Notes under the pieces: model-generated
Seen by the model: only the letters and a program-made list of their open reading frames with translations
What the model was told of the DNA's origin: nothing
Database searches by the model: none
Origin: a virus
DNA length: 64,000 nucleotides
IMG/VR virus record: IMGVR_UViG_3300042874_000422
Location: 13,540-77,539 of that record
Strand: one strand, 5' to 3'
Position numbers and translations under genes: made by a program
Part shown: positions 19,911 to 56,381 of the stretch, piece after piece
How positions within the stretch are numbered: position 1 is the first letter of the stretch
How the letters are laid out: every line of letters begins with the position of its first letter

Positions 19911-20297
19911 TTATGCGTTGTAGACGTCGGCTTCGCCGGGTCCGATCGCCGTCGCCGGGTTCCAGAACAGGATGTTGACGACGAGTCCGGCGAGCCCAGC
20001 GTTGTTGATCGTCACGAACACGGTGCCGGTGGCGGTGTTGAACCACGGCTCGCCGTGCGTGATCGGCGTGGTCACCCAGATGTCGGTCGGCGCCAGCGGG
20101 ATCACCATGACGCGCGACGGAGGCTCGGTGCCATCAGCGGGGGCCGCAGCACCCGCGATACCGAGGTTCGGCTCGGCGACAGAGCTGAGTGCGAAGCCTT
20201 GGTTCACCTGCGTGAGCCCGGTGTTGATGCTGTTCGCGCCTGCCGCCAGCGTGATGCGCTGACGATTCCAAAGAAGCTGCCCTGCGTTCGTGCTCAT
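19911..20297 (-). CDS. MSTNAG-family paralog 1 (putative minor virion protein)
   Basis: Clearly homologous to 20816..21196 and 37108..37476. Confidence 0.7.
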   Translation of the reverse strand: MSTNAGQLLWNRQRITLAAGANSINTGLTQVNQGFALSSVAEPNLGIAGAAAPADGTEPPSRVMVIPLAPTDIWVTTPITHGEPWFNTATGTVFVTINNAGLAGLVVNILFWNPATAIGPGEADVYNA

Positions 20298-20351
20298 GTG
20301 GCCTCCAGGTCCGAAGATACGGGAACATCGGAGACCACGTCAAACACGGAG

Positions 20352-20819
20352 CTAGCGAGCTTCGAACGCGATCGTCACACGCGGCGAGCCACCGAAGCAT
20401 GGCTCGACGTAATGCGGAACCTTCGACGGCGAGATCACGAGCAGCCCGACCTCGGGTGTGACGCGCTCGATCCGGTCGGGGAATTCGAACACCGTGTCGC
20501 CTGAGCCTGACGTCACGTAGTAGATCCCGGTCCAGTCGCCGCTGTGCTTGTGGCGCTCGTGGTGACTGCCGTTGCGATTGACGATCGCCCACGCTTGCCA
20601 CTTCTTGCGGCTGGTGTTCGCGATCTCGTCGAACGCGGCGCGCACGCGATCATGGAGCTGGCCGATCGCCGGCACGGGCCACATGAGCAAATCTTCGTCG
20701 GAGCGCCAGCCTCCCCGGTTGTAGCTCGGGTGGCTGGGCTCGTATTGAGCACGCAACAAAATCGCGTCGTACAGCTCAAGATCGAGATGCGCGGTCGCGA
20801 GACGACGGCGATAGATCAC
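20352..20819 (-). CDS. 2OG-Fe(II) oxygenase (TIGR02466-like)
   Basis: GGWRS, WAIVN..G..H..HKH...WTGIYYV, HYVEP, RVTIAF; GTG coupled to the paralog 2 stop. Confidence 0.8.
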   Translation of the reverse strand: MIYRRRLATAHLDLELYDAILLRAQYEPSHPSYNRGGWRSDEDLLMWPVPAIGQLHDRVRAAFDEIANTSRKKWQAWAIVNRNGSHHERHKHSGDWTGIYYVTSGSGDTVFEFPDRIERVTPEVGLLVISPSKVPHYVEPCFGGSPRVTIAFEAR

Positions 20820-21196
20820 GCGATCGGATGATACGTCTCGGCTTCGCCGGGGCCAATCGCCGTGTGCGGGTCCCAGAACAGGACGTTGATGGTCTCGCCA
20901 CCACCGCCGGTGAACGTGACGAACACGGTGCCGGTCGCCGTGTTCACCCACGGCTCGCTGTGGTCCACGTTGGTCCACTGCGAGAGGGGCGCCATCGGGA
21001 TCACCTGCACGCGCGAGGCGGGCAGCGTGCCGTCGCCCGGCGCCGCGATGCCCGGAATGCCGAGGTTCGGCTCGCCGACGCTGTTCGCCGCGAAGTTCTG
21101 GTTCACTTGGCGGATGCCGGTGTCGACGAGGGTGTCACCCGCTGCGAGGGTGATGCGCTGACGGTTCCAGAGAAGCTGACCTGCGTTGGTGCTCAT
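20816..21196 (-). CDS. MSTNAG-family paralog 2
   Basis: Homologous to paralogs 1 and 3. Confidence 0.7.
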   Translation of the reverse strand: MSTNAGQLLWNRQRITLAAGDTLVDTGIRQVNQNFAANSVGEPNLGIPGIAAPGDGTLPASRVQVIPMAPLSQWTNVDHSEPWVNTATGTVFVTFTGGGGETINVLFWDPHTAIGPGEAETYHPIA

Positions 21197-21246
21197 GGCC
21201 TCAGAAGATACCAGACGTGTCGGACCCTTGTGTTACGCACGTCAAC

Positions 21247-21456
21247 GTGGACGTGATTGTCAGGCCCAAAGCTCCTCCTGCGGCGCAGGTCGCCAACCCT
21301 CCAATCGCCCGAACCTTCGTGCTGATGTGCGCCGGAAAGTGCCGATCGCCGACGTCACACGGCTACGTCATTACACGTCGCGCGGGCATGATCGGCTTCG
21401 AGCACGTCTACGCTTGCTCGTGCTGTAAGACCGAACGGCGCTTCGGGCTCGTATAG
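21247..21456 (+). CDS. small zinc-ribbon protein
   Basis: CAGKC...CSCC; promoter motif at 21218. Confidence 0.55.
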   Translation: MDVIVRPKAPPAAQVANPPIARTFVLMCAGKCRSPTSHGYVITRRAGMIGFEHVYACSCCKTERRFGLV

Positions 21457-21468
21457 TAGCATCGGTGG

Positions 21469-22368
21469 ATGCAGCTCGGAATCGACTACGCATCCGTCGA
21501 CGACAACGCCCCGCCGAACTGGGCCCTCGCGAAGCAGCCGAGCGCCGACGGCTCTCGCCTGACGTTCGCGATCGTTCGCGGCGCGTACGGAAACTGGTCG
21601 GATACGACGTGCATCCGCGATTGGTCCGGGATCAAAGCCGCCGGGCTCGTGCGCGGTTCGTATCTCTACCCACGCTACAAGAACGGCCAAGGCGAGCTGA
21701 TGCCGATCATGTCGCAGGTCGCGGCGCTGCAACACGCGATCAAAGCGGGCGGCGGGCTCGACGCCTACAAGGATTTGCCGCCCGCGATCGACATCGAATC
21801 AGGTGGCAGCCCGACGTCATTTGGTTGCACCGCTGAGCAGGCGCTCGTGTGGTACCGCGAGATCTGGAACGAGATGCAGCTCGCGTTCGGTGTGCGCCCG
21901 CTCATCTACACGAGCGGTCGCGTGTGGCTGGAAGATCTCGACAACCAGATGGCGCCAGATCTTGCGACGAGCGCAGCGTGGCTCGCAAAGCCGTGGCCCT
22001 GGAAAGCCAAGACCACTGCGCATCGCGACATCACCAAGCCGTTTTCGAATGGCGCGTACGATCCGCAGGTGCCGATCCCGTGGGGCGGCGGGAACTGGTG
22101 GATTCATCAGTACCAAGGCGACGCGGTGAACTTCCCGGGCTTCACGCACACCGTCGACATCAATCGCTTCAACTTGATGCGCATCGGCGAGAAAGGCGCT
22201 CGCGTGTCGTGGGTGCAACGCCGCGTCGGTACGAAGCCTGATGGCGACTTCGGCCCGAAGACGGAGACAGCGGTCAAGACGTTCCAGAGCCAGCACAAGC
22301 TCACCGCTGATGGTGTGATCGGTCCGCTCACGTTCGCGCCACTCTGCTGGACGCCGCCGGTCTACTAG
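21469..22368 (+). CDS. endolysin: GH25 muramidase plus C-terminal peptidoglycan-binding domain
   Basis: GIDYAS, LPPAIDIE (DxE), PLIYTS, WWIHQY, VDINRF; DGDFGPKTETAVKTFQ..HKL.ADGVIGP.T. Confidence 0.9.
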   Translation: MQLGIDYASVDDNAPPNWALAKQPSADGSRLTFAIVRGAYGNWSDTTCIRDWSGIKAAGLVRGSYLYPRYKNGQGELMPIMSQVAALQHAIKAGGGLDAYKDLPPAIDIESGGSPTSFGCTAEQALVWYREIWNEMQLAFGVRPLIYTSGRVWLEDLDNQMAPDLATSAAWLAKPWPWKAKTTAHRDITKPFSNGAYDPQVPIPWGGGNWWIHQYQGDAVNFPGFTHTVDINRFNLMRIGEKGARVSWVQRRVGTKPDGDFGPKTETAVKTFQSQHKLTADGVIGPLTFAPLCWTPPVY

Positions 22369-22388
22369 CGCGTGTTACCCTTCGCGGC

Positions 22389-23774: not shown

Positions 23775-23783
23775 CCGTCCACA

Positions 23784-23820: not shown

Positions 23821-23828
23821 GTCAGGCC

Positions 23829-32732: not shown

Positions 32733-33287
32733 ATGGCGCGCTGGCCGACCGCCCCGTACACGACGCATCGCACCGGTTGCTATCGATGCCGTCGGATGAC
32801 GTCGGCCGACGGCGGGTGCGGTGTGAAGGGCTACCCCTGCACGCACTGGGGTGTCGACACATTCACGATCGACGGCAGCCGCGATGTGTGGGCGCCAGAG
32901 GCCGGCACCGTCGTCGCGGTCGCCAACGGCAGCTCGCCACCATTTTCAGGCTACGGCCCCGGTATCGTGCTGATGCTGGGCGCGAGCGGCGTCTACCATC
33001 TGCTTGCGCATCTCGACTACTCGACGATCGACGTTCGCGAAGGTCAGCAGCTCGCCGAAGGTGAGCCGATCGCGATGTTCAGCGAGGCATACGGCCACTG
33101 CCACTACGAGATTCGTCTGGCGCCGACGGGCCCGTCCGACGTGAACACAGTCGACCCGGTCGCGTGGCACGCGGGAGCCACCGGCATCACCACCGGCGAG
33201 ATCGCGCTCATGTTCGTCGCGGGCGTCGTCGGGCTCGCGGGTGCGATCATGCTCGACCGCTGGCTTGCTGGCGAGCCCGTTGGTTGA
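32733..33287 (+). CDS. M23-family peptidase with C-terminal TM anchor
   Basis: HWGVD (HxxxD), AP..GTV, LAHL, HCHYE (HxH). Confidence 0.85.
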   Translation: MARWPTAPYTTHRTGCYRCRRMTSADGGCGVKGYPCTHWGVDTFTIDGSRDVWAPEAGTVVAVANGSSPPFSGYGPGIVLMLGASGVYHLLAHLDYSTIDVREGQQLAEGEPIAMFSEAYGHCHYEIRLAPTGPSDVNTVDPVAWHAGATGITTGEIALMFVAGVVGLAGAIMLDRWLAGEPVG

Positions 33288-36262: not shown

Positions 36263-36413
36263 CAGTCAGGAAGCTGCCACGCCTCGGGTAGCTTTGGAAG
36301 AAACGAGCCGCGCTCGACCTTGCGTAATCCGGGACGCCTGCTCGTTCATGTCGGCCATGAGGGTTACTGTACCTCTGCTTGCAACTGAGCTTCAACTTCG
36401 GACCGTCTACGTA

Positions 36414-37178: not shown

Positions 37179-37476
37179 TCTCGGCGTCAGCGGCGTTGTC
37201 GTTGCTGAAGATGACGTGGATGGTGTTCGTCACGGCGCTGAGCGTGGGCTCGCCGTGCGTGATGAACGTCCACGCCGAGATCGGCGACATCGGCATCACC
37301 TGGACGCGCGACGGGTCCGTGAAACCCGGCTCGGCGACCGAGTTAGCGACGAAGTTCTGATTCACCTGACGAAGTCCGGTGTCGATGTCTAGGACGCCAG
37401 GGGCGCCGCCGTTGACGCCTGCCGGAATCGTGGCCCGGATACGGTTCCAAAGGAGATTGCCCGCGTTGGTGCTCAT
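37108..37476 (-). CDS. MSTNAG-family paralog 3
   Basis: MSTNAGNLLWNR...INVLFWDPHT..GPG.ADTY. Confidence 0.7.
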   Translation of the reverse strand: MSTNAGNLLWNRIRATIPAGVNGGAPGVLDIDTGLRQVNQNFVANSVAEPGFTDPSRVQVMPMSPISAWTFITHGEPTLSAVTNTIHVIFSNDNAADAEINVLFWDPHTLAGPGDADTYNAP

Positions 37477-37598
37477 GACCCACACTCTACCCCCGCTTGC
37501 AACCGAGCTTCAACTCGTGCGATACGGGCCGGATCGTGGGGTGGACAGACGACGAGAGGATCGAGCGAGCCCTGTGCGAGCTAGCCGACCACTGGTGG

Positions 37599-38600: not shown

Positions 38601-38924
38601 TTAAACGACGTCGCTGTTGGGCTTGACCGGGATTGCCTCGGACGCAGCCACCGAAATGATGACGCCGGTGCCGATGCCGACGGCGTAGAGCGCCTGACCC
38701 GGCGCGAGGACGAACGTGTCCTCTTTGTTGATCGGAATGATCCAGGCGTTCGCGAACACAGGGATGTTCGACAGCGTGCCGACGTCATGCGCGAGCAGCG
38801 CATTGTTCGGTCCGAAGTTGCGAACGACCACACGAAGCGGCACGCCAGCGGCCTTCATCAAGGTCGCAGGATTCTGCGTGCCCTGAATCGGGAGAACGAG
38901 GCTGTTCAGCTGTGAAGGCTGCAT
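38601..38924 (-). CDS. small beta-rich virion protein (penton-like candidate)
   Basis: RBS GGAGG; similar to the C-terminal domain of 23829..24398. Confidence 0.55.
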   Translation of the reverse strand: MQPSQLNSLVLPIQGTQNPATLMKAAGVPLRVVVRNFGPNNALLAHDVGTLSNIPVFANAWIIPINKEDTFVLAPGQALYAVGIGTGVIISVAASEAIPVKPNSDVV

Positions 38925-38944: not shown

Positions 38945-39475
38945 CTAGCGCGTGTTCGACGGCGGTGCGACTTGCAGGAGAAACCCTTGAAAGCCCACTT
39001 CGATGCGGAGCGAGACGAGCGGATCGACGGGAACCGCCGTCGGGATCTGCGCGCCATCCCACGTCGGCAGCGCGAGCGTGTCAACCACGACCTGGAAGCC
39101 CTCGGAGCGGATCAGGTAGTACGGCTCGGCCCACTCCCACGTCCGCTCGCTGCTGCCCTTGGTGAGCAGGTTTATCAGCGTCGGATTCTTCGTCATGATG
39201 ACGTTCTTGCCGAAGTCGTTGATGCGCAGGCGCACCAATTCAGCAAGCATGTCTTGCGACGGCTGGTTCGGCAGCACGCCGTTCGCGTCGTCGAGCGCGG
39301 TGATGCGCGGGATCATGCGGTGGCACTCGAAGGGCATGTCGATGTTGTTGGTGAACACCGCGTCGGGGAACTGCGTGCCCGACTGACTGCCCTGCATGAT
39401 GATTTCACCTGGCATCTCGTACGGGATGCGCATGGTGATTTCGCGATTGGCCCACGTGCTCGGAAGACGACCCAT
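38945..39475 (-). CDS. candidate single-jelly-roll capsid protein (small)
   Basis: All-beta pattern D.PFE...VRLRIND......M.K.P..I....W..PY.L.....FQV.V...IEVGFQG; strong RBS AAGGAG. Fold inferred. Confidence 0.6.
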   Translation of the reverse strand: MGRLPSTWANREITMRIPYEMPGEIIMQGSQSGTQFPDAVFTNNIDMPFECHRMIPRITALDDANGVLPNQPSQDMLAELVRLRINDFGKNVIMTKNPTLINLLTKGSSERTWEWAEPYYLIRSEGFQVVVDTLALPTWDGAQIPTAVPVDPLVSLRIEVGFQGFLLQVAPPSNTR

Positions 39476-41520: not shown

Positions 41521-42231
41521 TTAGACAACGCTCCTCTTGATGAGGCCGTAGAGGTACGTCTTGACGTCCGCGAACGTCAGAGCCGCACCGTTGTCAGCAG
41601 CCGCCTGGCTGATGACGATCGGCGCCTCGGGCTGGAACGACATCTTGAAGCCGAGGTTCTCGCGGAGGTCGATCGGCAGGACCATCGCGTTGCGATCACG
41701 GGGCGACGGGACGCCGTTCTGCGCCAGCTCGAATGAGCTGGTCGTGGCGAACACGTAGTAGCCGTGACCCTGCGGGTAGTCCTGCATCACGCCGTACGTG
41801 TAGACCTTCCCGTTGTACGAGAATTCCAGGTACGTCACGCGATCGAACTGGAACAGCGTGTTGAGGATCGGCGGGGCCGAGAGCGCGCCCGAGCCGTCCG
41901 CGAGGACAGGCTGCGTCGGGTTCGCCGTCGGGCCGCGCATGACGCGGACCATCTTCACGCCGATGCCGTACACGTACATCTCCCACGACTGCGGCAGACC
42001 GGAGTCGCCGTTACGGGGGACGTTGGTGTCGACGCGCGTCGAGGCGCGCGTGCCGCCCGGGATGGGCTGCGAGCGGCCAGCCGTGAACGCCTCGACCGGC
42101 GAGGTCTGGGTGTTCGTGATCTGGACGGTGCTGTAGAGCTTGTCGTCGATCCAGTCGCTGATCGCGACCGTCTGCCCGTTGGGCAGGGTGAGGGTCGTGG
42201 TTCCGGGTGCTACGCCAACAGTTCCAGCCAT
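41521..42231 (-). CDS. candidate major capsid protein, single-jelly-roll type
   Basis: LYST, DTN.....LP....VYGI, NGVPSP.....LPI.L.....F...F, C-terminal VK.YL.GL..R.V; RBS AGGAG, own terminator, strongly biased codons. Fold inferred. Confidence 0.65.
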   Translation of the reverse strand: MAGTVGVAPGTTTLTLPNGQTVAISDWIDDKLYSTVQITNTQTSPVEAFTAGRSQPIPGGTRASTRVDTNVPRNGDSGLPQSWEMYVYGIGVKMVRVMRGPTANPTQPVLADGSGALSAPPILNTLFQFDRVTYLEFSYNGKVYTYGVMQDYPQGHGYYVFATTSSFELAQNGVPSPRDRNAMVLPIDLRENLGFKMSFQPEAPIVISQAAADNGAALTFADVKTYLYGLIKRSVV

Positions 42232-42438: not shown

Positions 42439-43131
42439 CTAGCGGCTGCCGCCGAGCAAGGTCGCGCCGTACGCAGCCGACAGACCGTGGATCTGCGGAC
42501 CGCCGAGGAGCGAGACCTGGCTCGACCGCGAGCTGGGCTGGCCGAGCAAGCTCACGGGAGCCGAGCGACCGAGTGACGTACCGGCGAAGCCGGGACCCGC
42601 AACGCCCGGGATCGTGCCGACCGACTGCGGCTGTGGCGCGATCGACGGGATGCCAAGGCCATTCAGGTAATTCATCTTCGGGATGCCGAGACCGTTCAGG
42701 TACGTCCCATCAGCCTGACGACGCATACCGAGGCCGTTGAGCGCGTTCACCTGCGCGATACCGAGGCCGGCCATCGCGCCCGGCTCCTTCTCGACGGCGG
42801 TCTGCACGGCGGCACTCGCCACCGCGACCGGGAACAGGAGCTTCTCGATGTACGAGAGGCCCGCTGCGAGGAACGAACCAACGACGGAGCCGAGCGCCAT
42901 CGGGCGCGTCGAGCGCATCGCTGCGAGGAGACCGGAGGTGCCGAGGCCCGCGAGCAGGCCGTACAGCTCGCGGTTCTTCGCGTTCTTGCCGCCCTGGACG
43001 TGAGCGAGCGCCATCGACGTCACGCCTGCGACGCCACCGCCGATGAGCGTGCCGTAAAAGCTCAGCGGACCAGCGCTGAGACCGAGGCCGAGCAGGTTGA
43101 CTTCTCCGAGTAGCTTCGCGCGACGGGCCAT
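42439..43131 (-). CDS. major membrane protein candidate (3 TM) with LNGLG repeats
   Basis: Three hydrophobic helices; MAGLG and three LNGLG; directly upstream of the capsid gene. Confidence 0.65.
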   Translation of the reverse strand: MARRAKLLGEVNLLGLGLSAGPLSFYGTLIGGGVAGVTSMALAHVQGGKNAKNRELYGLLAGLGTSGLLAAMRSTRPMALGSVVGSFLAAGLSYIEKLLFPVAVASAAVQTAVEKEPGAMAGLGIAQVNALNGLGMRRQADGTYLNGLGIPKMNYLNGLGIPSIAPQPQSVGTIPGVAGPGFAGTSLGRSAPVSLLGQPSSRSSQVSLLGGPQIHGLSAAYGATLLGGSR

Positions 43132-43145
43132 TGACGTTCTCCTTG

Positions 43146-43328
43146 TTATCGAGTCGGGTTGGAGCAGCTACCGGTGAACACCAGCCCGCTGCGATGCTTC
43201 TTGCTCTTGGGGACTCTGCAGATCTCGACGCCGCGCTTCGTTCGCTTGTTGAACACGCAGCGACAGTCGGTGCGCTGAACCGGACGTTCCCCGACGCCGG
43301 CCAACGTCATGACGTGATTCTTCGCCAC
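43146..43328 (-). CDS. small basic Cys-containing protein
   Basis: GTG overlapping the upstream TAG; LAGVG then a K/R-rich segment. Confidence 0.5.
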   Translation of the reverse strand: MAKNHVMTLAGVGERPVQRTDCRCVFNKRTKRGVEICRVPKSKKHRSGLVFTGSCSNPTR

Positions 43329-43813
43329 TAACCGTTCCACCAACGGTTGGTCCACTGGTGCCAGCTCGTCTCGGCCTGCGAGCGAGCGTAAGCGTTCGGC
43401 AGACCACCACCCTTGAGGAGATGGGCGACCATCTGCTCCTTGGCGATCATCTGCGGCGCGATCTCCTCGCCGACCTGCGGGTAGCCCGCGCCCCAGCCGG
43501 GCTGGATCATGCCGCCGGCGCCGATCGCGTGCATCCGCTCCATCGGAAGCGCCTGGAGGACCTGCTTCTTCGCCTGCTTCTTCGCGCGCCACGCGGCGAA
43601 TTGCAGACGAATGCGATCGATGACGCCGACACCGCGAAGACCGCCGAGACCGTTGGTCTGGAGATCCATCGGGTACTGCGTGAACGACGCCGCCACCGAC
43701 TGGACGTCGGCATTCGGGTCGTAGCCGATCGCCGGCTGGAGGACGCTCGTGCGGTAGACCCTATCGGGCCTGACGTAGTGCGAGGTGCCCCCATGCCGCG
43801 TGATGATCTGCAT
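43328..43813 (-). CDS. putative virion protein with a GLGGLRGVG motif
   Basis: In the capsid gene string. Confidence 0.6.
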   Translation of the reverse strand: MQIITRHGGTSHYVRPDRVYRTSVLQPAIGYDPNADVQSVAASFTQYPMDLQTNGLGGLRGVGVIDRIRLQFAAWRAKKQAKKQVLQALPMERMHAIGAGGMIQPGWGAGYPQVGEEIAPQMIAKEQMVAHLLKGGGLPNAYARSQAETSWHQWTNRWWNG

Positions 43814-44517: not shown

Positions 44518-45054
44518 ATGATGATCCTCAATCCGACGACCGCTGCTGCCGTGGTGCTGCACGCGAGCGATGGGGTGTGGATCATGTTCCTGCAGTCGAC
44601 GGCGCCCTGTGATCCGTACGGCCCAATCATGATCGAGAGCACGATGCGGGAACGGCTCGCGGCTCGTTTGACAGATCTCAACGAGGACAACGCCTACGGT
44701 CTCCGATTGATCGGTCTGATGCCGGTGAACGACCCCAAGAATGTCGACACCGTCTTGGAGGCGTTCGACGCCTACCGGCTGCACGATGCGTGGTTCGCAC
44801 CGAACGCCGAGCTTTTGGCGTTCATCGCCGAGAACGCCCAAGACGCGATCTCGTTGCTCCTGGCGCAAACGCGGCCCGGCGCGCTCCCTGACGCACCGAT
44901 CATGATCAACGAAATGGCTGACATCCTCGGGGTCTCGGTACCGACGGTGCGGCGCATGATCAAGCTGGAGGAGATCCCGTTCCTGAAGTTCGGCCGAGTC
45001 TACCGTTTCATCGCCGCCGATGTTCTCGCGAGCCTAGAACGACGCCAGCGGTAA
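44518..45054 (+). CDS. degenerate T5orf172-like domain plus excisionase-type HTH
   Basis: F..YRL..AWF; INEMADILGVSVPTVRRMIK...IP..KFGR..RF. Confidence 0.7.
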   Translation: MMILNPTTAAAVVLHASDGVWIMFLQSTAPCDPYGPIMIESTMRERLAARLTDLNEDNAYGLRLIGLMPVNDPKNVDTVLEAFDAYRLHDAWFAPNAELLAFIAENAQDAISLLLAQTRPGALPDAPIMINEMADILGVSVPTVRRMIKLEEIPFLKFGRVYRFIAADVLASLERRQR

Positions 45055-45700: not shown

Positions 45701-46393
45701 CTACGCGGGGAAGTCGAGAGCCTCGGCGTAAGGGACCTCGACCGCGTACTTGTTGCGGCCGGGTAGCGTCGTGTCGAGCGCGACCCACTTCGACGGGCCG
45801 TTCTTCGGCAACCCTGCGAGCGGGAAGATGTGCGACCAGTCGTCGCTCTTGCTCTCTTTCATCACGCGAAGGCGCGGCGTGATGCCATTGAGCGCGAGCA
45901 AGGTCGCGATCAGCACGCTCTGGTCGTCGCAATCACCGCCGCCGAATTCCAGCGTGCGCCGCGCGCTCTGATAAAGGTCGATACCCTCGACGTCGCCGTT
46001 CGGGAACTTGATCGGCGCGACATCGCCCGTGTACCGGACGTTGTCCTTGACGAAGTTGTACACCGCACGCGCCTCGCACTCACCATCGCGCTCGGGGCAC
46101 TGCGACGTGATCTTGAGTGCGAGCTTGCGCATCTCCGGATCTTGCACCGACTTGTGGACGAGTTTCTGGATCGACGCGAGGCGCTCTTCGATCGGCATTC
46201 CTTCGCTGGCGCGAAGCGTCGTTCGCATGTTGCCGTCGGAGTAGCCGTCGATCGCCGGCGCCTCTTCGTACCGCTTCGACATGAAACGTACACGTCCGAG
46301 GCTCGCCGTCTTGCGCTGACGGTAAATGAAGTACCCGCCAAGGAGAGCGACACCGAGACCAACGAGGCCCCATTGCTTGCGTGACAGCGCCAT
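45701..46393 (-). CDS. TM-anchored transglutaminase-like (papain-fold) cysteine enzyme
   Basis: VYNFVK.NVRY..D, GDCDD (Cys), WSHIF (His), VALDTT (Asp). Confidence 0.85.
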   Translation of the reverse strand: MALSRKQWGLVGLGVALLGGYFIYRQRKTASLGRVRFMSKRYEEAPAIDGYSDGNMRTTLRASEGMPIEERLASIQKLVHKSVQDPEMRKLALKITSQCPERDGECEARAVYNFVKDNVRYTGDVAPIKFPNGDVEGIDLYQSARRTLEFGGGDCDDQSVLIATLLALNGITPRLRVMKESKSDDWSHIFPLAGLPKNGPSKWVALDTTLPGRNKYAVEVPYAEALDFPA

Positions 46394-46432: not shown

Positions 46433-46831
46433 ATGCTCCAGTTCTCCCCTCTTGGCTCCGTGTCCGATGACTACGTGGATTGCTTGGCCGAGGGTGGAGA
46501 TGCGGACGTCTGCCGAGAGCTGCATCCGCCGACACCTGGCGCGCCCACGACCTCGCCGATCATGACGGCGGAAGAACAGCAGATCGCTTCGAGCCATGCG
46601 TGCGACGTCTGCGACCCGAACACGCAGTGGTGTGACGGCACGACGTGTATCCCGTTTACCGTCGAAGAACAGGCTAAGTGGGCTGCTGTCGGAAAGCCGC
46701 CCGAGCAGATCGTCGTTCGGGCGAGCCCGACCCGATCGCTCATCCCCGGTGTTTCCAACACGACGCTCGCGATCGGCGCGGCCTTGCTCGGGCTGGGTGT
46801 CATCGCCTACAAGCGCACGCGCCGAGCGTGA
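46433..46831 (+). CDS. Cys-rich virion membrane protein (C-terminal TM plus basic tail)
   Basis: CDP.TQW...CIPF module also present in the next gene. Confidence 0.6.
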   Translation: MLQFSPLGSVSDDYVDCLAEGGDADVCRELHPPTPGAPTTSPIMTAEEQQIASSHACDVCDPNTQWCDGTTCIPFTVEEQAKWAAVGKPPEQIVVRASPTRSLIPGVSNTTLAIGAALLGLGVIAYKRTRRA

Positions 46832-46862
46832 TAGCCTACGTTCCAAGGAAGGTGAAGAAGAC

Positions 46863-47225
46863 ATGATTACGATGAACGGACTCGGAGCAGGCGGCGATAA
46901 CTGCGACCCAGCAACGTCGTGGTACCAGTCCGACCCGAACATGGCGTACTACGGGAGCTGCATCCCGTTCGCCGGCCTTCCCGGCTCAAGCTCGACCGGC
47001 CCCGCGCCGACGACGCAGACGACGGCAGCGTCTCCGTGGTGGGGCTCGCTCCTCACCAGCCTCACGTCGGGCGTGGTCAAGGGCATCGTCGGCAACGACG
47101 GTCAGCCCGCGACTCCGACGATGCCGCCGCCCAGGATGCCGCCCACGCCGTGGTACGCAACGCCGACCGGCATGATCGGCATCGGTGTCGGTGCGGTCGC
47201 GCTGATCTTCCTGCTGAGGAAGTAA
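46863..47225 (+). CDS. virion membrane protein
   Basis: MITMNGLG; CDP..SW...CIPF; TM then RK. Confidence 0.65.
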   Translation: MITMNGLGAGGDNCDPATSWYQSDPNMAYYGSCIPFAGLPGSSSTGPAPTTQTTAASPWWGSLLTSLTSGVVKGIVGNDGQPATPTMPPPRMPPTPWYATPTGMIGIGVGAVALIFLLRK

Positions 47226-47479
47226 TGCTGGCGGTCTCACCAGCAAAGCAACCGCTCGCCGGGATTCTCGATAACTTCATCGACTCAGTCACCGGTAGAG
47301 CCGTCTCCAGCGCGACCACCGCCGCACAACCGCTGCTCGACGACGTCGAGCGACGAGTCAAGGCGCTCATTCTGCCTGTGGTCTTCTTCACCGCCGGTAG
47401 CTTCTTGATCGGGCTACTCACGTACCGCGAAGTGGCCAAGCGATCGAAACCGGTCGCGGGACTCCGAGGGCGCCGATGA
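47225..47479 (+). CDS. small membrane protein
   Basis: LAG; TM; VAGLRGRR. Confidence 0.55.
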   Translation: MLAVSPAKQPLAGILDNFIDSVTGRAVSSATTAAQPLLDDVERRVKALILPVVFFTAGSFLIGLLTYREVAKRSKPVAGLRGRR

Positions 47480-47775
47480 TTCTCCTGAACCCGAACGTTG
47501 GCGTTGCGCCAGGCACCACGACCATGCAGCTCGGCGAAGCGTGCGCGCCGGATCCGATCGAGCCCGAGTCGCCGTTCACGCAGATGGTCACGACGTACGC
47601 GCCGTCGTCGACGACACTCGACACCGGCGTGGAGCTGTGGATCCCGTACCAAGACACCGTTCGCTTACGTGGGCTCGGTGAGATTGCGCCGCCGCGCTGG
47701 GGGCTCGTGCTGCTCGCCGGACTCACCGCGTTCGGCATCGTGCTCGGATTGCGACGTTGGCGCGCCAAGCGTTGA
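47476..47775 (+). CDS. small membrane protein
   Basis: LRGLG; TM; RRWRAKR. Confidence 0.6.
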   Translation: MILLNPNVGVAPGTTTMQLGEACAPDPIEPESPFTQMVTTYAPSSTTLDTGVELWIPYQDTVRLRGLGEIAPPRWGLVLLAGLTAFGIVLGLRRWRAKR

Positions 47776-47793
47776 GCGTGATACCGTAGCCGC

Positions 47794-48237
47794 ATGCTCG
47801 GTTTCATTCCCGCGCCGATGGGCCAGAAGGTCCCCGGGCAGTACCCGAATCAGATCCAGTACAGCTACGGCGGCGACGGTCACTACCTCTGTCCCCCGGA
47901 TCCGCGGTTCAACCAGCACGGCGAGATCGGGATGTACTACGACACGCCGCTCGGTGGCCCACAGATCCCGACGGACGCAGAGCTGGCGACCGTCTACGGC
48001 CGGACACCGGTCGCGAGCGCGTGGATCACCGCCAAGGAAGGCTACTTCCCGTCGCCGTGGCGACCGCCGGGCGGCTGGAACCCCGCTGGCGCATGGGGCC
48101 CGCAGCCGAGCTTGGGCGCTGCGCCCATGATCTTCTACAAGTTCGGCATGTCGCCGCTACTGTGGGGGCTCGTCGCGGGCGCGGGCGGGCTCCTCTGGTG
48201 GATGACGCACAAGACCAAGCCGCGTCGGAGGCGTTAG
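47794..48237 (+). CDS. Pro/Gly-rich membrane protein
   Basis: SLG; TM; KTKPRRRR. Confidence 0.6.
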   Translation: MLGFIPAPMGQKVPGQYPNQIQYSYGGDGHYLCPPDPRFNQHGEIGMYYDTPLGGPQIPTDAELATVYGRTPVASAWITAKEGYFPSPWRPPGGWNPAGAWGPQPSLGAAPMIFYKFGMSPLLWGLVAGAGGLLWWMTHKTKPRRRR

Positions 48238-48477
48238 ATGCTGACGCTCGGGCTCGGTGATCCCGTCGATCTGACGTTGCCAGAAACGGCGACGGCGACC
48301 GAGACACAGGCTGTGATCGCCGCGCTCAACGCGCACAACGATCGTGTTTTCAAGGTCACGCTGATCTCGACGATCGTTGTCGGGCTCGCAGCGGCGCTCA
48401 ACACGCTGCGCACGTTCCGCACCCTTCAGCGCGAGGAAGCGCGCGAGATGGCTCTCTTAAAAAGGCTCAAGAAATAA
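48238..48477 (+). CDS. small membrane protein
   Basis: MLTLGLGD; single TM. Confidence 0.6.
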   Translation: MLTLGLGDPVDLTLPETATATETQAVIAALNAHNDRVFKVTLISTIVVGLAAALNTLRTFRTLQREEAREMALLKRLKK

Positions 48478-49075: not shown

Positions 49076-51163
49076 TCACGCTCGCGCGCGCCCGTTCGCG
49101 GGCTTGGCGGGCTTGACAGGCGGCTGAACCTCGACTGCGTTGTCGTCACCGGTCTCGTCACCTTCGTCTTCCTCGTCCTCATCTTCGTCGTCATCGGTGT
49201 TGCCCGACAGCTCGTTGAGAACGATCTGTGCGGCCTCGTCGCGGAACTGCTGCGAAGCATCCGGCAGGAGGACGTCCATGAAGTCGGCGACACGACCCTG
49301 ACCGAGCAGCTCGGTCATCGCGAGGATTTGGATCTGCTGCTGCATCACGATCATCGCGGCCTGCAAGATCACACTCGCCGCCTGTTCTGGCTCGACACCG
49401 TCGACGGTGCTGTCCTTCTTGAGACGCGGCGGCGACATCTTCAGCGACTCGTGGAAATGCGCGACACCGACACGAAGCTCTTCGACCTTCGGCAGAATCG
49501 GACCGAACCATTCAAGATCGGTGCGCCCATGGATACGCCTGACCTGTGCGCCCTCGACGACAGCGGGAACCGGGCCCGTCGTCCATTGTGCGTTCGGATC
49601 CTTGCCGTTGCCGTTCGAGGCTCGCACCGACGACGTCTGCGAGACTTGCGTGTCACCGGCGGGGCCCGCGCTCGCGGGAACCTGTGGGCCGTTCAGACCG
49701 CCAGCTTGCTGACGCGCCTGCATCTGCGCCTGCACCGTCATCGCCTGCGCCTGTGCCTGCATCGCGGCGGCGTTCGCCTGCGCGAGTGACGCCTGCGATT
49801 GCTGTGTCGCTACGGCTTCCTTGGTCTTGCCGCCGAGATACCGCTCGGCCATCGACGACGCGCGCTCCAGTCCCTTCTCGATCAGCTGGATGGTCTCGCT
49901 ACCACCGCCGCTGTTGAGCTGCAGGATTTGCTCGACGGCGTTGCGCTGCATTTCGAGGATCGACTGGTACGTCGACGTGATCGAGCGCGTCGCCTGATCG
50001 AGCCCGTTGCTTGACTCCTTGGCCATCGCCATCACGTCGCGCGGGTTCATCATGTACGACTGCATCTGCGCCATCTGTGCGGTCTGGTTGCGGGCTTGCT
50101 CCTTCACCGCTTCGACCTGCTGGCGTGCGTTCTCCTGTAGGAACATCAGCATCGGGTCCGGGCCCTTGTTCGCTGACGCTGCGGCGAGCGCAGCGGTCTG
50201 TGCCGCAGCTTGCTGTTGTGCCACGACCGACGCCTGCATCGCTTCCATCTGGCGACGGCTCTCCTCGGCCTGACGCTGGATCATCTCCTTCATCTCGCGC
50301 TCGCGGCGTTCAGCTTCGCGCTCGCGGCGCTCATCGGCGGCTTGCTGCGCGAGCACGCGGTTCTGTTCCTTCAACGCCTCGATCGCGGGGTCGGTCGTCG
50401 GGCGCTGCGTCGCCGCCGTGGCGAGGGCCGCGATCATCTGCTCCAGCTTCGAGAACTTCTCGTTCTGGGCGTTCGCCTCGGCACGCATACGAGCCTCGGC
50501 GCGCTCCAGCTCCTGTCGGTGCTGCGCCTGCATCTGCTCCTCGCGGGCGCGCTGCAACTGCGCCTGCATCTCCTTGAGCTGCTCTTCCATGCGTCGACGG
50601 TCCGCGTCAGCCGCAGCGAGCGCGGCGCTGTTCGGGTCATAGCGGACGACCGGCTCACGCGGCGTGTACTGCGAGGCCGGCGGCTGCTGCACGTAGACCG
50701 TCTGCGGCTGACCGGGAACGTTGGCGGGGAGACCGTTGTGGAACGCGGAAGGGAAAGAACCCATAGGACGCACCTGCTGTGGCTGTGAGGGGGCGATCGG
50801 ACGATCGGGGGCGGCTGCTGCCGAGAGCGTCGGCGGAACCTTCTCGGGGTAATCTTGCGGGTTGTAGAAGATCGTCCAGTCGTGCTTCGCCGGCTGCGGC
50901 ATCGACGAATCGGTGACGGTGATGGCGTACATGCCGCCACCCGACCAATCCGTCACGAGCCACTGCTCCAGTCCCTTGACGTCTTCCTTCGACCAATTCG
51001 AGCCCTGCGATGACCCATCGTCACCGGCGGGCAGCGGGATCATCGTGCGGGCGTTGCCCTTCAGCTTCTCCACACGAACGGAGAGCGGTTCTGACATGGA
51101 CTCCAGCTTGGCTGGATCGAACACCTTGGCGCCGATGGGTTGCTTGCTCACGGCGTCCACCAT
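49076..51163 (-). CDS. large Gln/Ala-rich coiled-coil protein
   Basis: Globular N-terminus, Pro-rich linker, long helical middle, acidic tail. Confidence 0.75.
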   Translation of the reverse strand: MVDAVSKQPIGAKVFDPAKLESMSEPLSVRVEKLKGNARTMIPLPAGDDGSSQGSNWSKEDVKGLEQWLVTDWSGGGMYAITVTDSSMPQPAKHDWTIFYNPQDYPEKVPPTLSAAAAPDRPIAPSQPQQVRPMGSFPSAFHNGLPANVPGQPQTVYVQQPPASQYTPREPVVRYDPNSAALAAADADRRRMEEQLKEMQAQLQRAREEQMQAQHRQELERAEARMRAEANAQNEKFSKLEQMIAALATAATQRPTTDPAIEALKEQNRVLAQQAADERREREAERREREMKEMIQRQAEESRRQMEAMQASVVAQQQAAAQTAALAAASANKGPDPMLMFLQENARQQVEAVKEQARNQTAQMAQMQSYMMNPRDVMAMAKESSNGLDQATRSITSTYQSILEMQRNAVEQILQLNSGGGSETIQLIEKGLERASSMAERYLGGKTKEAVATQQSQASLAQANAAAMQAQAQAMTVQAQMQARQQAGGLNGPQVPASAGPAGDTQVSQTSSVRASNGNGKDPNAQWTTGPVPAVVEGAQVRRIHGRTDLEWFGPILPKVEELRVGVAHFHESLKMSPPRLKKDSTVDGVEPEQAASVILQAAMIVMQQQIQILAMTELLGQGRVADFMDVLLPDASQQFRDEAAQIVLNELSGNTDDDEDEDEEDEGDETGDDNAVEVQPPVKPAKPANGRARA

Positions 51164-53610: not shown

Positions 53611-53749
53611 TTGCTCGCGATCTCTGTCGTGTGGTAACTCCGAGATCAGGATCGTCGTCCGTCTCGACCCGGACCGATCCAAGGCACCCTCGACACACTC
53701 GCCCCCGAGAGTTGAGGGTGCCCAACCGCTTTCTGATACGATGATCGCC

Positions 53750-54106: not shown

Positions 54107-54312
54107 TGCTGACGCTCAGCGACGCGGTCCCACCGCAGGATCCGACCACCGCTGACGCGCCGATCGTCAAGCCACCAGCTATCGAGATGGTGAAGATCAA
54201 GGCGCTGTCAACGTGGAACGCGCTCACGATCGGCGTGATCACCGGGTTCGCGCTCAGCCTCGGCACGTTCATCTTCGAGAGCGCACGCGATAAGATTCGC
54301 GCTCGTCGCTAG
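54106..54312 (+). CDS. small membrane protein
   Basis: MLTLSD (compare MLTLGLGD at 48238); TM. Confidence 0.55.
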   Translation: MLTLSDAVPPQDPTTADAPIVKPPAIEMVKIKALSTWNALTIGVITGFALSLGTFIFESARDKIRARR

Positions 54313-54926
54313 TACACCTGCTTCTGCGGCTTCCGTCGATTCTCCCACTCTTCCTTGGCGATCTCCTGGCCAGCCCTCTCTCTGACCTGCTGAACGCTCA
54401 AGGTGTCTTGGTGCTCGTCGGCGATTCGCTTGAGTCGGATCGCGTACTCGCCGTACGGGAGCTTGTGCTTCTGGTAGTGGAGGTAGCGCGCCCACGCCGC
54501 TTCTTCGGCGGCTGGGAAGAAACCGATCACCATCTCCTCGTTCAAGAGGGGATTGCGCCCCACGGCGCGGAATCGCTTCTTGCCGTTCGTTCCGCCGGTC
54601 ACGTAGATGCCGACGAACCCGCTCGCCAGGTCATCGCTCCGGTGCAGCTTTGAGAGGTCGATCTGATCGATGAGCTGTTGATGCGCGTTCAAAAACTCGG
54701 GGCCGAACACGTCTAGGTCCCCAGTTTTCACCATGTGATCGATCTTCCGGAAGAACCACCGGAGGACCCATCGGGGTGTCGTATCCATGTCCGAGGCCAG
54801 CTGGAAGAACAGCTGCCAAACAGCGGGAGGTATCGCAATCCTCGTTTGCCTGAAGCCGGAATCGTCCAAATCCGAGGGCTCGGTGGTTTCTGGATCCGGC
54901 TGATCTGTAGTGCTTTTGGCAATCAT
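54309..54926 (-). CDS. AP2-domain DNA-binding protein
   Basis: SGFVGIY...KRFRA...IGFF.AAEEAA.A; RHH-like N-terminal part; no HNH motif seen. Confidence 0.6.
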   Translation of the reverse strand: MIAKSTTDQPDPETTEPSDLDDSGFRQTRIAIPPAVWQLFFQLASDMDTTPRWVLRWFFRKIDHMVKTGDLDVFGPEFLNAHQQLIDQIDLSKLHRSDDLASGFVGIYVTGGTNGKKRFRAVGRNPLLNEEMVIGFFPAAEEAAWARYLHYQKHKLPYGEYAIRLKRIADEHQDTLSVQQVRERAGQEIAKEEWENRRKPQKQVY

Positions 54927-54929
54927 CCC

Positions 54930-55200
54930 CGGCCATCTAAACGAATTTCGACCAAAACGTCCATCTCATTTTCCGGAAAACCCTCAAATCCGACCCTCCC
55001 CTGTCGAGCAACTTGATACACGGGATGTATCACCAAATCGCAAGTATCTGTATATATAGGCTTCTATAAAACCGTAGTAGTAAAGAGTGTGTTTGGGAAA
55101 GTCCGTAGGATTTTTCGAGATTTCGAAATAGAAAACGAAAGCTCGAAGGATAATTACAAAGACTACTAACCCCATTTTTGCCTCCGAGCGATGTTGATAC
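54930..55200. promoter_or_regulatory. AT-rich non-coding region (candidate origin or control region)
   Basis: Sharp GC drop; inverted repeat TGATACA-CGGGA-TGTATCA at 55014-55032. Confidence 0.5.
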
Positions 55201-55255
55201 ACCGCCAGAACGAGGACGCAGCTATCCCGACAGGTTGAGCCGGCTTCGGTGAGCC

Positions 55256-56038
55256 CTACTCGGACTTGCGGCTGAGCGGCTTGATCGCGCGGAGTGCCGG
55301 GAAGCGATCCTTGATCGCCTCGCGATGCCGCCAGGCGTAGCGCCCGCCGAAGAACAGGATCGCCCCTCCGATGAGGAGGGGAGCGTGCGTCGACACCCAA
55401 CCGAGGAGGTCGAAGCTCTTCTTCGCGATGGTCACCACGGCTTTGCCGGCCTGGTAGGTCGCATTCACGACGTCCTCTGCGACACCTGCGATATTGCGCA
55501 GAATCTCGTAGGCGTCGCTGACCAGGTTGATCACGATGAGCGCCATCTGCGACCACCAGGGTCGAATGCAGCTGACGACGTACGAGTCGCCAATCGCGTC
55601 AGAAGCGGCCCCCAGCGCGTCCATCGCCCATTCCTTGAAGCCGTCGGCGAAGACGTAGGCGGTCTTGAACGCAGCGGCAGCGGAGGTCTCAGCGCTGTCT
55701 GCGGCGTCGAGGTAGTTCTTGGACTGGTTGGTCACGCGCAGGAGCGCCCGGTAGCGGTCCATCCCCGTCGGGAACGAGCAGCCCGGAGCGACCGCGCAGT
55801 CGGTCTGAGCCTTCGCCAACACGTCGAACGCCTGCGAGAGCACAGCTTGCACCGACGCCACGCCGCGCCGGATCGACTCGGGCTCAAAGTAGTTCGTCGG
55901 GTGCCAGTCCCTGCCGAGCGCGTACCGGCGCTCGTCGATCGGCGACGTCAGCTCGTTCGCCTTGTTGATGCACCGGATCGTGTCGTCCTCGCCCGCGCCG
56001 ATCGGCACCAGCGAGTCAAAGAAGCCGTTAAGCGCCAT
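55256..56038 (-). CDS. virion membrane protein
   Basis: MALNGFFD start; C-terminal TM. Confidence 0.6.
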   Translation of the reverse strand: MALNGFFDSLVPIGAGEDDTIRCINKANELTSPIDERRYALGRDWHPTNYFEPESIRRGVASVQAVLSQAFDVLAKAQTDCAVAPGCSFPTGMDRYRALLRVTNQSKNYLDAADSAETSAAAAFKTAYVFADGFKEWAMDALGAASDAIGDSYVVSCIRPWWSQMALIVINLVSDAYEILRNIAGVAEDVVNATYQAGKAVVTIAKKSFDLLGWVSTHAPLLIGGAILFFGGRYAWRHREAIKDRFPALRAIKPLSRKSE

Positions 56039-56381
56039 GGCGCGCCCCCTTGGTCGAGTGCGTGAAGAGGTAGACGCCGAGACTGAGCCCGATCGCGATG
56101 GCGGTCCCGACGCGCCACCAGTTCGTCTTGTACTGAGGCTCGTAGCCCGGGGGCGGCTGTAGCTCCGGGGGGAGGTCCGACGGGTTCATGCCCGGCGGCA
56201 GATCGGCCACCACGATCGGGATGTTGTAGTTCTCGTCGAGCACACACTGACGCAGGCACGTGGCATACGCAGCAGCGTAGGCGTCCGTCGACGGAAACAT
56301 GCGCGGGTTGACCGCATCGCAGCGATCAAGGCACAGCCCGTAGTTGGTACGAGGATTAGCGAGCCCGCGTCGAAATCGCAT
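56028..56381 (-). CDS. virion membrane protein
   Basis: Cys pairs, Pro-rich repeat, C-terminal TM. Confidence 0.6.
   Translation of the reverse strand: MRFRRGLANPRTNYGLCLDRCDAVNPRMFPSTDAYAAAYATCLRQCVLDENYNIPIVVADLPPGMNPSDLPPELQPPPGYEPQYKTNWWRVGTAIAIGLSLGVYLFTHSTKGARHGA

Follow-up and report, generated by a model that had tools for sequence, protein, structure and literature searches.

SPV1 (Portogloboviridae) builds its shell from two single jelly-roll proteins of ~180 aa, VP4 and VP10 (PDB 6OJ0), which form hexamers and pentamers. Beneath the shell lie subcapsomer proteins and a lipid layer that enclose a core of DNA and protein; the published profile of this virus names no packaging ATPase (PMC8459092). 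Two different single jelly-roll capsid proteins, of ~170–290 aa, are also combined with an internal membrane in Helvetiavirae/Singelaviria (P23-77, SH1, HHIV-2 and HCIV-1), and the host of P23-77 is bacterial. Published accounts describe genomes of 16–31 kb for these viruses, with capsid genes that adjoin an FtsK/HerA-type packaging ATPase (PMC8328091, PMC12642351, PMC12643093). The PRD1/PM2-type viruses (Tectiviridae, Corticoviridae, Autolykiviridae) are tailless, with an internal membrane that contains many small proteins and with a muralytic enzyme associated with the virion; their genomes of 10–20 kb encode a capsid protein of the double-jelly-roll type together with a P9-type ATPase.

The DNA analyzed here, referred to as the window, is 64 kb of a complete 77.4-kb circularly assembled genome. 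The assembly closes on itself through a 127-bp overlap of its termini, and in IMG/VR the record falls in the class with direct terminal repeats. The CheckV completeness estimate for the record is only 73%, which conflicts with the terminal repeat and which we count against the explanation given below. Relatives with direct terminal repeats measure 85 and 138 kb, complete relatives span 85–221 kb, and many contigs bearing homologues cluster at 77–89 kb; the genomes of the lineage cover ~77–221 kb. We found no published description of the lineage in the literature. The genes for replication, host takeover and accessory functions are phage-like (rIIA/rIIB, Sak4, SNF2, ThyX, the family A polymerase PolA, a PD-(D/E)XK exonuclease and an endolysin) and, like the genome size, resemble those of Caudoviricetes of 70–220 kb; in contrast to the latter, terminase, portal, HK97 capsid and tail genes were not detected. 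No deposited phage exceeds 28% identity to PolA, and g098, g093 and the helicase had no match among 50,697 deposited phage genomes. The automatic taxonomy of the Atlas neighbours is Uroviricota.

We read this record, with moderate confidence, as the genome of an uncultured, non-tailed bacterial virus with a jelly-roll shell and no packaging motor, from a lineage that is widespread in soil and sediment and is not one of tailed phages. We infer the internal membrane, the shape of the virion, its taillessness and its mode of assembly. To our knowledge, no bacterial virus combines a jelly-roll capsid with a genome so large, which gives such a reading a low prior.

Two single jelly-roll proteins

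An earlier note had picked out two all-beta, capsid-like proteins, g098 and g093 (Table 1). Both are conserved genes, and structure prediction with structural search gave a single jelly roll as the high-confidence predicted fold of both products. The AF2 model of g098 (pLDDT 86.7, pTM 0.82) had SPV1 as its top match in two independent searches, Foldseek (prob 0.99–1.00) and VIA, where 6oj0_T reached Z 7.4 (rmsd 3.3, 135 aa), HHIV-2 6.9, HCIV-1 6.4 and P23-77 VP17 5.5. The g093 model (pLDDT 89.5) was matched in VIA by EhV-201 (Z 8.8), PBCV-1 (8.1–8.2), PR772/PRD1 P3 (7.5/7.1, within a range of 6.5–7.5 for the P3 single barrels), SPV1 (7.1–7.2), HHIV-2/HCIV-1 (7.0) and SH1 (6.7), and non-viral beta-sandwiches (PHM, nucleoplasmin, GOLD) tied with these capsid proteins. 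The two models match two different proteins of 6OJ0, and HHIV-2, HCIV-1, SH1 and P23-77 VP16/VP17 are among the matches of both at Z 4.4–7.0; the likeness to Helvetiavirae/Singelaviria is one of fold only.

Overall, the best structural matches of g098 and g093 are capsid proteins of SPV1, HHIV-2/HCIV-1/SH1, P23-77, PRD1 and PBCV-1 at Z 5.5–8.8, a range that, as the tool warns, can mirror just a common beta-sandwich arrangement and that, for these models, supports the jelly-roll fold and not homology. Because the SPV1 scores lie below Z 8, common descent with SPV1 is not established; the two viruses also have no sequence similarity. As judged from the models, SPV1 would nevertheless be the best structural analogue. 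The pair may consist of two major capsid proteins, or of one protein that forms hexamers and one that is a penton protein.

The most conserved protein of the lineage is g098, with 60–81% identity across 18 loci; its 472 homologues are unannotated, and its nearest named neighbours in the Atlas are the PRD1 P3/P2 families, at 0.76–0.78 only. Distant members of its family occur in Gemmatimonadota genomes as three tandem copies, with no other gene in common with the virus. Of the 15 IMG/VR loci, 12 keep the g093 gene, which the relatives of 138 and 221 kb also have. The g098 and g093 profiles are unrelated, and opposite-strand genes lie between the two.

Gene content around the jelly-roll pair

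The two jelly-roll proteins are, replication aside, encoded by the most conserved genes, which lie in a conserved block together with small membrane proteins, g106 and g114. This core of virion candidates, at ~35.9–51.2 kb, is narrower than the region 19911–56381, for which the earlier note had proposed a structural role and the absence of terminase, portal, HK97 capsid and tail genes. The absence stood; the region, however, is not purely structural but mosaic, since it also holds ThyX, NUDIX, a 3'-5' exonuclease, a 2OG-Fe(II) oxygenase, endonuclease VII, HNH nucleases, a nucleotide kinase and a thioredoxin-like protein. Small proteins with TM helices are enriched there (21 of 67 versus 7 of 68 elsewhere, Fisher p = 0.003). 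About 15 of these had been described as carrying basic tails; we counted 19 small TM proteins, and a basic C-terminal tail is present in only 7.

Table 1. Features named in the text, with positions in the window.
Feature	Position	Strand	Remarks
g059 and g061, three-member family with g090 (37108-37485), ~125 aa	19911..21196	-	
g062, GH25 lysozyme + PG_binding_1, endolysin-type	21469..22368	+	without TM helix
g071/g072/g073, three paralogues with a common C-terminal domain of ~200 aa	26642..29359	+	
g082, M23 peptidase, C-terminal TM helix at 130-148	32796..33287	+	PF01551, E 2.5e-9
g091, 329 aa, candidate vertex/spike protein or possibly double jelly roll	37599..38588	-	
g092, 107 aa, C-terminal TM helix, conserved partner gene	38601..38924	-	directly downstream of g093
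g093, 176 aa, second single jelly roll, candidate penton or second capsid protein	38945..39475	-	
g098, 236 aa, single jelly roll, candidate major capsid protein (hexamer former)	41521..42231	-	
g099 (Gly-rich membrane protein, repeated LNGLG), g100, g101	42439..43813	-	conserved block adjoining g098, same strand
g103, 178 aa, C-terminal HTH_17	44518..45054	+	Pfam PF12728, E 1.7e-11
g104 and g105, small, C-terminal TM helices	45081..45655	-	
g106, 230 aa, transglutaminase-like (papain-fold) Cys enzyme	45701..46393	-	PF01841, E 7e-7, above cut-off
g107-g112, run of small proteins	46433..48477	+	five with C-terminal TM helix, tails mostly basic
g114, 695 aa, Gln/Ala-rich coiled-coil-like middle, acidic C-terminus	49076..51163	-	
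g131, 534 aa, SF3 (DUF5906/VapE-like) replicative helicase	58298..59902	-	replication arm

Within the conserved block, g100 is a basic protein of 60 aa with 4 Cys, and g103 is kept in 12 of 15 loci. The g106 enzyme is present in all 15 loci at 45–62% identity and is a candidate maturation protease. The g114 protein had no family match; its homologues measure 711 aa (138-kb relative) and 880 aa (221-kb relative), and another occurs in a Gemmatimonadota MAG. Its sequence suggests a candidate scaffold or size-determining protein.

The paralogy noted earlier for g071/g072/g073 was borne out at 38–42% identity (blastp). These proteins are poorly conserved among relatives, the N-terminus of g071 has Gly/Ala-rich repeats, and the three are candidate spikes or receptor binders. 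The TM-anchored muralytic enzymes that had been proposed come down to one, g082; g062 has no such anchor. The g059/g061/g090 family shares 48–66% identity (blastp), and g060, between g059 and g061, is a 2OG-Fe(II) oxygenase (Pfam). Beside the polymerase are encoded ~11 small Arg/Lys-rich proteins, of which g016 is 71–77% identical across relatives.

Packaging and head-tail genes

Searches of the called proteins of at least 45 aa with PHROGs, Pfam and NCBIfam yielded no match to a family of terminase, portal, HK97 capsid or tail proteins (for small proteins, among the PHROG matches listed). For the portal, this means no family among the proteins scanned singly nor among the matches listed for the remainder. 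Six-frame searches of this genome with TerL_ATPase, Terminase_3, Phage_portal and Pox_A32 gave nothing, nor did the same models together with Terminase_6N and Phage_capsid, the latter two run on relatives only, in the relatives; the same searches gave matches in controls and in two Gemmatimonadota genomes. The three large-terminase models (TerL_ATPase, Terminase_3, Terminase_6N) were without match in four or five relatives and positive in controls. Phage_portal, the single model of the six-frame portal search, was silent in 5 genomes and matched in G001, G767 and the controls. An HK97-fold major capsid protein had no sequence-family match, with structure predictions covering g098 and g093; a cryptic HK97 fold may conceivably lie in g019, g024, g051, g091 or g124, and some cryptic capsid fold in the conserved g091, g114, g024, g056 or g124. 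In the relatives of 138 and 221 kb, none of the large proteins fell into a structural family. The 13.5 kb of the record beyond the window hold replication genes only, with no terminase/portal/HK97 module. The combination that had been proposed, a large virus with two jelly-roll capsid-like proteins, phage-type rIIA/B, Sak4, SNF2 and ThyX and no head-tail module, is thus far supported.

A highly divergent tailed phage, with HK97 capsid, portal and terminase changed past recognition and with the jelly rolls as cement/decoration or fibre proteins, is nonetheless conceivable, and we consider it unlikely. Tailed phages also use jelly rolls in cement, fibre and receptor-binding domains, and such proteins are among the structural matches here (Pam1 7eel_H, E 1.2e-3; KHP30/40; the HFTV1 turret; 7-7-1 fibres; a lambda Stf-like BFVD entry). 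The genes for replication and rII likewise match the tailed-phage type, as does the taxonomy of the Atlas neighbours. However, terminases are usually the phage genes that searches recover most readily, and several terminase, portal and HK97 models were silent in six genomes of 77–221 kb while positive in controls. The only unassigned proteins above 400 aa are g024 (C-terminal TM helix), g056, g071 (repeat/beta-rich) and g114 (coiled coil), none of which has a Walker A motif in terminase-like surroundings. Moreover, a cement or fibre protein seldom ranks first in conservation within a lineage, as g098 does here, and a layout that changes strand often and includes numerous tiny TM genes does not resemble a head-tail operon.

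The six-frame Walker-A scan identified the SF3 helicase and Sak4 as the only real NTPases, with no candidate of terminase size and no conjugation or partition NTPase. An FtsK/HerA/A32-type packaging ATPase was not detected in the genome: FtsK_SpoIIIE touches only the P-loop of the helicase (E 0.01, below cut-off), and DUF87/HerA and Pox_A32 were absent in G000, G004 and G006. The helicase g131, the only large unexplained P-loop protein, was considered as the packaging ATPase and rejected. Its Atlas features lie at 0.94 to DUF5906/VapE clusters, its structure gives TM 0.70–0.83 to Toprim/DnaG-fused primase-helicases, and some of its homologues contain inteins.

PRD1, PM2 and P23-77/SH1 viruses have an FtsK/HerA-type packaging ATPase in common. 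Without it, the virus cannot be placed with these families, and the earlier suggestion of a PRD1/PM2/P23-77-type inventory fails on this point. In Helvetiavirae/Singelaviria the ATPase gene stands beside the capsid genes, whereas here there is none and opposite-strand genes separate the jelly-roll genes. The missing hallmark leaves SPV1 as the closest analogue. Many small membrane proteins and a set of small basic proteins are encoded here as well; SPV1 differs in its hyperthermophilic archaeal host, 20-kb genome and lack of a polymerase, compared with a bacterial host, 77 kb and an own replication machinery here.

The missing ATPase also bears on whether the true major capsid protein is another one, for example a double jelly roll in g091, in a PRD1/PM2-like (Bamfordvirae-type) virus whose penton, vertex or minor proteins would be g098 and g093. 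The size of g091 fits bacterial double-jelly-roll capsid proteins, it lies directly downstream of g093-g092 in all relatives, g093 is matched best by single barrels from double-jelly-roll proteins (EhV-201, PBCV-1, PRD1/PR772 P3, FLiP), and the named Atlas neighbours of g098, distant as they are, are PRD1 P3/P2. Against this, g091 is only 24–32% identical among relatives, compared with 60–81% for g098, its profile matches no PDB structure, no other profile and neither jelly-roll profile, and double-jelly-roll capsid genes are accompanied by an A32/FtsK-type ATPase, which is absent here. Neither folded protein (g098, g093) is a double jelly roll. We regard this arrangement as improbable.

It is hardly probable that the element has no icosahedral capsid of its own, being a pleomorphic or vesicle-type membrane virus or a large integrative element or plasmid with jelly-roll surface/adhesion proteins. 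An integrase, abundant membrane proteins, the lack of a packaging ATPase and the tandem g098-family copies in an otherwise different gene context in Gemmatimonadota would fit. However, an NTPase for conjugation or partition is missing too. A lytic-capable virus is indicated by rIIA/B, the endolysin, PolA, genes of nucleotide metabolism and closed genomes of 77–221 kb on separate contigs, and both jelly rolls are most like shell proteins, with g098 conserved like a capsid gene.

Host and proposed virion

The GH25 and PG-binding lysozyme, the M23 peptidase and a SPOR domain indicate that the host is a bacterium. A myxococcal host, as had been suspected, was not borne out: MAG bins with relatives are labelled Actinomycetes, Polyangiales, Gemmatimonadota and Tepidisphaeraceae, and the g098 profile was found in 1 of 401 Myxococcota and 2 of 401 Gemmatimonadota genomes, starting genomes included.

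In the non-tailed, jelly-roll-shelled virus that we favor, g098 would form the capsomers of an icosahedral shell and g093 would either take the five-fold (penton) positions or be another shell protein. A lipid layer beneath the shell may contain the numerous small TM proteins, of which several have Lys/Arg tails; g071–g073 may form spikes, and g106 possibly processes virion proteins. Because no packaging motor was found, we propose that the ~11 small Arg/Lys-rich proteins probably condense the DNA and that the shell assembles around it, in the manner of SPV1, whose nucleoprotein core is formed by a VP1-type protein, and that it is not pumped into a preformed capsid. The two small jelly-roll proteins of this 77.4-kb genome resemble the shell proteins of membrane-containing viruses whose genomes are several-fold smaller.

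Predicted jelly-roll proteins and their genomic setting

The earlier note had proposed two jelly-roll capsid-like proteins, and structure prediction bore this out: the models of g098 (the candidate major capsid protein) and g093 (the second candidate) both show the jelly-roll fold, and their match lists are headed by capsid proteins from membrane-containing viruses. The AlphaFold model of g098, built on a 98-sequence alignment, is mainly beta (pLDDT 86.7, pTM 0.82). Its best Foldseek match in the PDB was the capsid protein of Sulfolobus polyhedral virus 1 (SPV1; E 2.2e-3, prob 0.99), with PCV2, SH1 and P23-77 also listed. The exhaustive VIA comparison gave SPV1 (Z 7.4, rmsd 3.3, 135 aa), HHIV-2 (6.9) and HCIV-1 (6.4), followed at lower scores by the STIV turret (6.2), PBCV-1 (5.9) and P23-77 VP17 (5.5), and SPV1 VP4 ranked fourth against BFVD. 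The g093 model (pLDDT 89.5) is a sandwich of eight strands, for which VIA returned EhV-201 (8.8), PBCV-1 (8.1-8.2), PR772 and PRD1 P3 (7.5 and 7.1), ASFV p72 (7.1), SPV1 (7.1-7.2), HHIV-2/HCIV-1 (7.0), FLiP (6.9) and SH1 (6.7); the non-viral sandwiches PHM, nucleoplasmin and GOLD tie at about 7.2, and tailed-phage jelly-roll cement proteins were among its Foldseek matches. At these scores it is the modelled fold alone that we regard as secure.

The capsid role of g098 and g093 is a candidate assignment that rests on genomic context, namely the conservation of g098 and the gene order in relatives. Within the lineage no protein is better conserved than g098, which reaches 60-81% identity compared with 30-60% for neighbouring genes, and the order g098 ... 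g093-g092-g091 is maintained in relatives. Comparison of the g098 and g093 profiles by hhalign revealed no relation, g091 matched neither profile, and the profiles of all three found nothing meaningful among PDB sequences. In a set of 5.8 billion proteins, g098 had 472 homologues, and it also had 131 representative clusters, all without annotation; tblastn of g098, g093 and the helicase g131 against 50,697 deposited phages gave zero matches.

Coordinates of the features discussed (window positions, unless the whole genome record, L001, or another genome is named)
Feature	Position	Strand	Length	Description
g098	41521-42231	minus	236 aa	candidate major capsid protein
g093	38945-39475	minus	176 aa	second jelly-roll candidate
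g099	42439-43131			LNGLG three times
g106				transglutaminase-like core (Pfam E 7e-7); found in 15/15 loci
g114			695 aa	coiled-coil-like
g131	58298-59902		534 aa	predicted SF3 helicase
Conserved core	~35.9-51.2 kb			g089, g091-g094, g098-g101, g103 (HTH_17), g104/g105, g106, g111, g114
Stretches without gene call	36263-37107; 6657-7414		~0.8 kb each
Family A DNA polymerase	L001:1518-4466		982 aa	fusion; N-terminal uracil-DNA-glycosylase-superfamily domain
Run of small basic proteins	L001:5790-8751		39-125 aa each	outside the window
g016	L001:8274-8489			small basic protein
Tandem g098-family copies	G001:C1:1187199-1189336 (L065/L066); G767:C36 (L064)			Gemmatimonadota genomes
Cas8c/Csd1- and Cas7-like proteins	G002:C1:61-2562 (L048)			contig end, 221-kb relative
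Split relative	G001:C1, 2.236-2.262 and 3.690-3.719 Mb (L027-L035)			two pieces

The genome was recovered as a single contig of 77,539 bp, of which the window covers bases 13540-77539. The terminal 127 bases of the contig are identical to its first 127 and IMG/VR classes the record under direct terminal repeats, indicating that the assembly is closed and measures about 77.4 kb. The CheckV completeness of 73% is at odds with this repeat, and the low estimate is likely due to a reference set that includes larger relatives (up to 221 kb). Because the G+C content is high throughout (60-70% along the whole sequence), plain ORF lists are crowded with spurious frames; a codon-usage model for which the contig itself served as training set gave 135 genes, and two stretches carry no call under this model. 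No tRNAs or Rfam families were found in the window.

Positions 19911-56381 had been described as a structural region of 36 kb. Proteins with TM helices are enriched there (21/67 versus 7/68 elsewhere, p = 0.003), 19 of them being no longer than 200 aa and seven ending in a Lys/Arg-rich tail, and the region holds the conserved core. However, it is a mosaic that also carries ThyX, NUDIX, exonuclease, oxygenase, endonuclease VII, HNH nuclease and kinase genes, so that the description overstates its extent. Shuffles gave an expectation of 24.3 for the motif [MIL]xGxG, which was counted 40 times (z 3.3), for the most part in g099 and core proteins close to it, and [LM]xGLG motifs recur in g099, g101, g105-g108, g110, g121 and g073. 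The latter motif, which occurs near the conserved g106, resembles adenovirus protease sites.

About 11 small proteins, 11-51% Lys+Arg, are encoded in a translationally tight run outside the window. Many of them begin with MAK or MAR and finish in poly-Arg/Lys tails, and one, g016, shares 71-77% identity with its counterparts in the 138- and 221-kb relatives. These proteins are candidates for DNA condensation.

Tailed-phage hallmarks, packaging ATPases and replication genes

Scans of the called proteins of at least 45 aa with PHROGs, Pfam and NCBIfam identified an integrase, rIIA/rIIB, ThyX, NUDIX, a GH25 and PG-binding lysozyme, an M23 peptidase, a 3'-5' exonuclease, endonuclease VII, HNH nucleases, a nucleotide kinase, dCMP deaminase, RNA ligase, a methyltransferase and others. 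None of these proteins matched a family of terminases, portals, capsids or tails; for small proteins, this applies to the PHROGs matches listed. In six-frame searches, TerL_ATPase, Terminase_3, Phage_portal and Pox_A32 had no match in this genome and four relatives of 85-221 kb (two with terminal repeats), and Terminase_6N and Phage_capsid had none in five relatives of 85-221 kb; control genomes and two Gemmatimonadota genomes do give matches with these models. In the 221-kb relative and the complete 138-kb one, the large proteins likewise matched no structural family. The flanking 13.5 kb, where a head-tail module would have spoken against the earlier reading of a tailless virus, carries replication genes instead.

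A six-frame Walker-A scan detected only Sak4, g131 and three incidental motifs. As a packaging ATPase, g131 was ruled out by its Atlas features, structure, motifs and position in the replication arm, all of which mark it as an SF3 helicase: it falls with DUF5906/VapE-like clusters in the Atlas (0.94), and its model superposes on Toprim- or DnaG-fused primase-helicases (TM 0.70-0.83). The FtsK model touches only its P-loop (E 0.01). Several homologues of g131 are 795-889 aa long and carry intein/homing-endonuclease domains (PF14890, PF05203/PF05204, PF14528). Sak4 (g135) was excluded from the packaging role by its family matches and its place in the recombination module. A HerA-like ATPase was rejected as a hallmark of the lineage, HerA/DUF87 being confined to two relatives of about 200 kb. 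In the 221-kb relative, which also encodes a ribonucleotide reductase, the HerA-like (DUF87) gene adjoins the polymerase; it recurs in the 196-kb relative and is missing from the 77-138-kb genomes. Taken together, the family, six-frame, Walker-A, FtsK and HerA/DUF87 results describe a lineage without a recognisable terminase or jelly-roll-virus packaging ATPase. A phmmer search of g131, g106 and g016 against the PDB gave nothing useful.

Together with the 3' end of the window, the 13.5 kb beyond it form one replication arm, with an SNF2 helicase, a PD-(D/E)XK exonuclease, Sak4, an SSB-like protein and a GP88-family protein. The family A polymerase fusion and the small basic proteins described above also belong to this arm. 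Among the polymerases of 50,697 deposited phage genomes, none exceeds 28% identity to the family A polymerase.

Relatives and host

Two relatives, of 85.3 and 137.9 kb, are complete genomes with terminal repeats; further related records, of 121, 196 and 221 kb, are linear. For most of its length the 138-kb genome is collinear with the present one, and all three genomes compared have in common both jelly-roll proteins, g091, g092, g105, g106, g114, PolA and the helicase-recombination module. One contig end of the 221-kb relative carries genes for Cas8c/Csd1- and Cas7-like proteins. Hundreds of unannotated homologues of the family occur in soil, sediment and cave metagenomes, automatic pipelines at present class the family as tailed phage, and our literature search found no description of the lineage. 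Three tandem, diverged copies of the g098 family (25-35% identity) lie in two Gemmatimonadota genomes, in a neighbourhood with no other gene in common with this virus. A tailed-prophage context for these paralogues was not found, the closest terminase being 100 kb off. A search for related loci with P0191, a remote family member, returned nothing.

The peptidoglycan hydrolases and a SPOR domain indicate a bacterial host. The Myxococcota assignment of the earlier note was not supported, as the g098 profile matched 1/401 sampled Myxococcota and 2/401 Gemmatimonadota genomes, starting genomes included, and the bins containing relatives are labelled variously Actinomycetes, Polyangiales, Gemmatimonadota and Tepidisphaeraceae. 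One relative lies in a MAG that entered the databases as a closed chromosome of Gemmatimonadota. We rejected this as proof of host because the relative is split into two pieces 1.46 Mb apart, which suggests a concatenated or misassembled record rather than integration. Among the sequencing runs listed, none of RNA contained this genome, and the sole run with all of it was a cave metagenome, perhaps the source sample itself.

Proposed particle and its significance

SPV1 is built as a shell, a membrane and a nucleoprotein core (PMC8459092). In the particle proposed here, g098 would form the capsomers and g093 would either occupy the five-fold vertices or contribute a second capsomer component; the TM proteins would line a membrane beneath the shell, g071-73 would provide spikes, and g106 may process virion proteins. 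Because no packaging motor is recognisable, the small basic proteins (g016 among them) probably condense the DNA, which would be enclosed during assembly, as in the SPV1 scheme. The virus resembles SPV1 at the level of fold and inventory, whereas host domain, genome size and autonomy differ. Viruses of the P23-77/SH1 and PRD1/PM2 types differ in possessing an ATPase hallmark that this virus lacks, and tailed phages in their terminase and portal.

We put forward, tentatively and as a possibility that we rate somewhat below even, a new lineage, at realm level, of dsDNA viruses of bacteria, 77-221 kb in genome size, with an SPV1-like particle (a single-jelly-roll shell and a protein-studded membrane), a protein-condensed genome and no packaging motor. 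Both jelly-roll genes and the SF3 helicase are ready markers for finding the host and isolating the particle. To our knowledge, all characterised bacterial dsDNA viruses larger than about 20 kb are tailed phages with an HK97 capsid, portal and terminase. If the proposal is true, it would break the rule by which every large dsDNA virus of bacteria has a tail, and the SPV1-type architecture would gain a bacterial counterpart. In the known prokaryotic membrane-containing jelly-roll viruses, the genome measures 10-31 kb; a widespread lineage of 77-221 kb that has jelly-roll shell proteins, its own replication and no recognisable motor would stretch the genome size of this architecture four- to ten-fold, and would pose the question of how genomes that large enter the particle.
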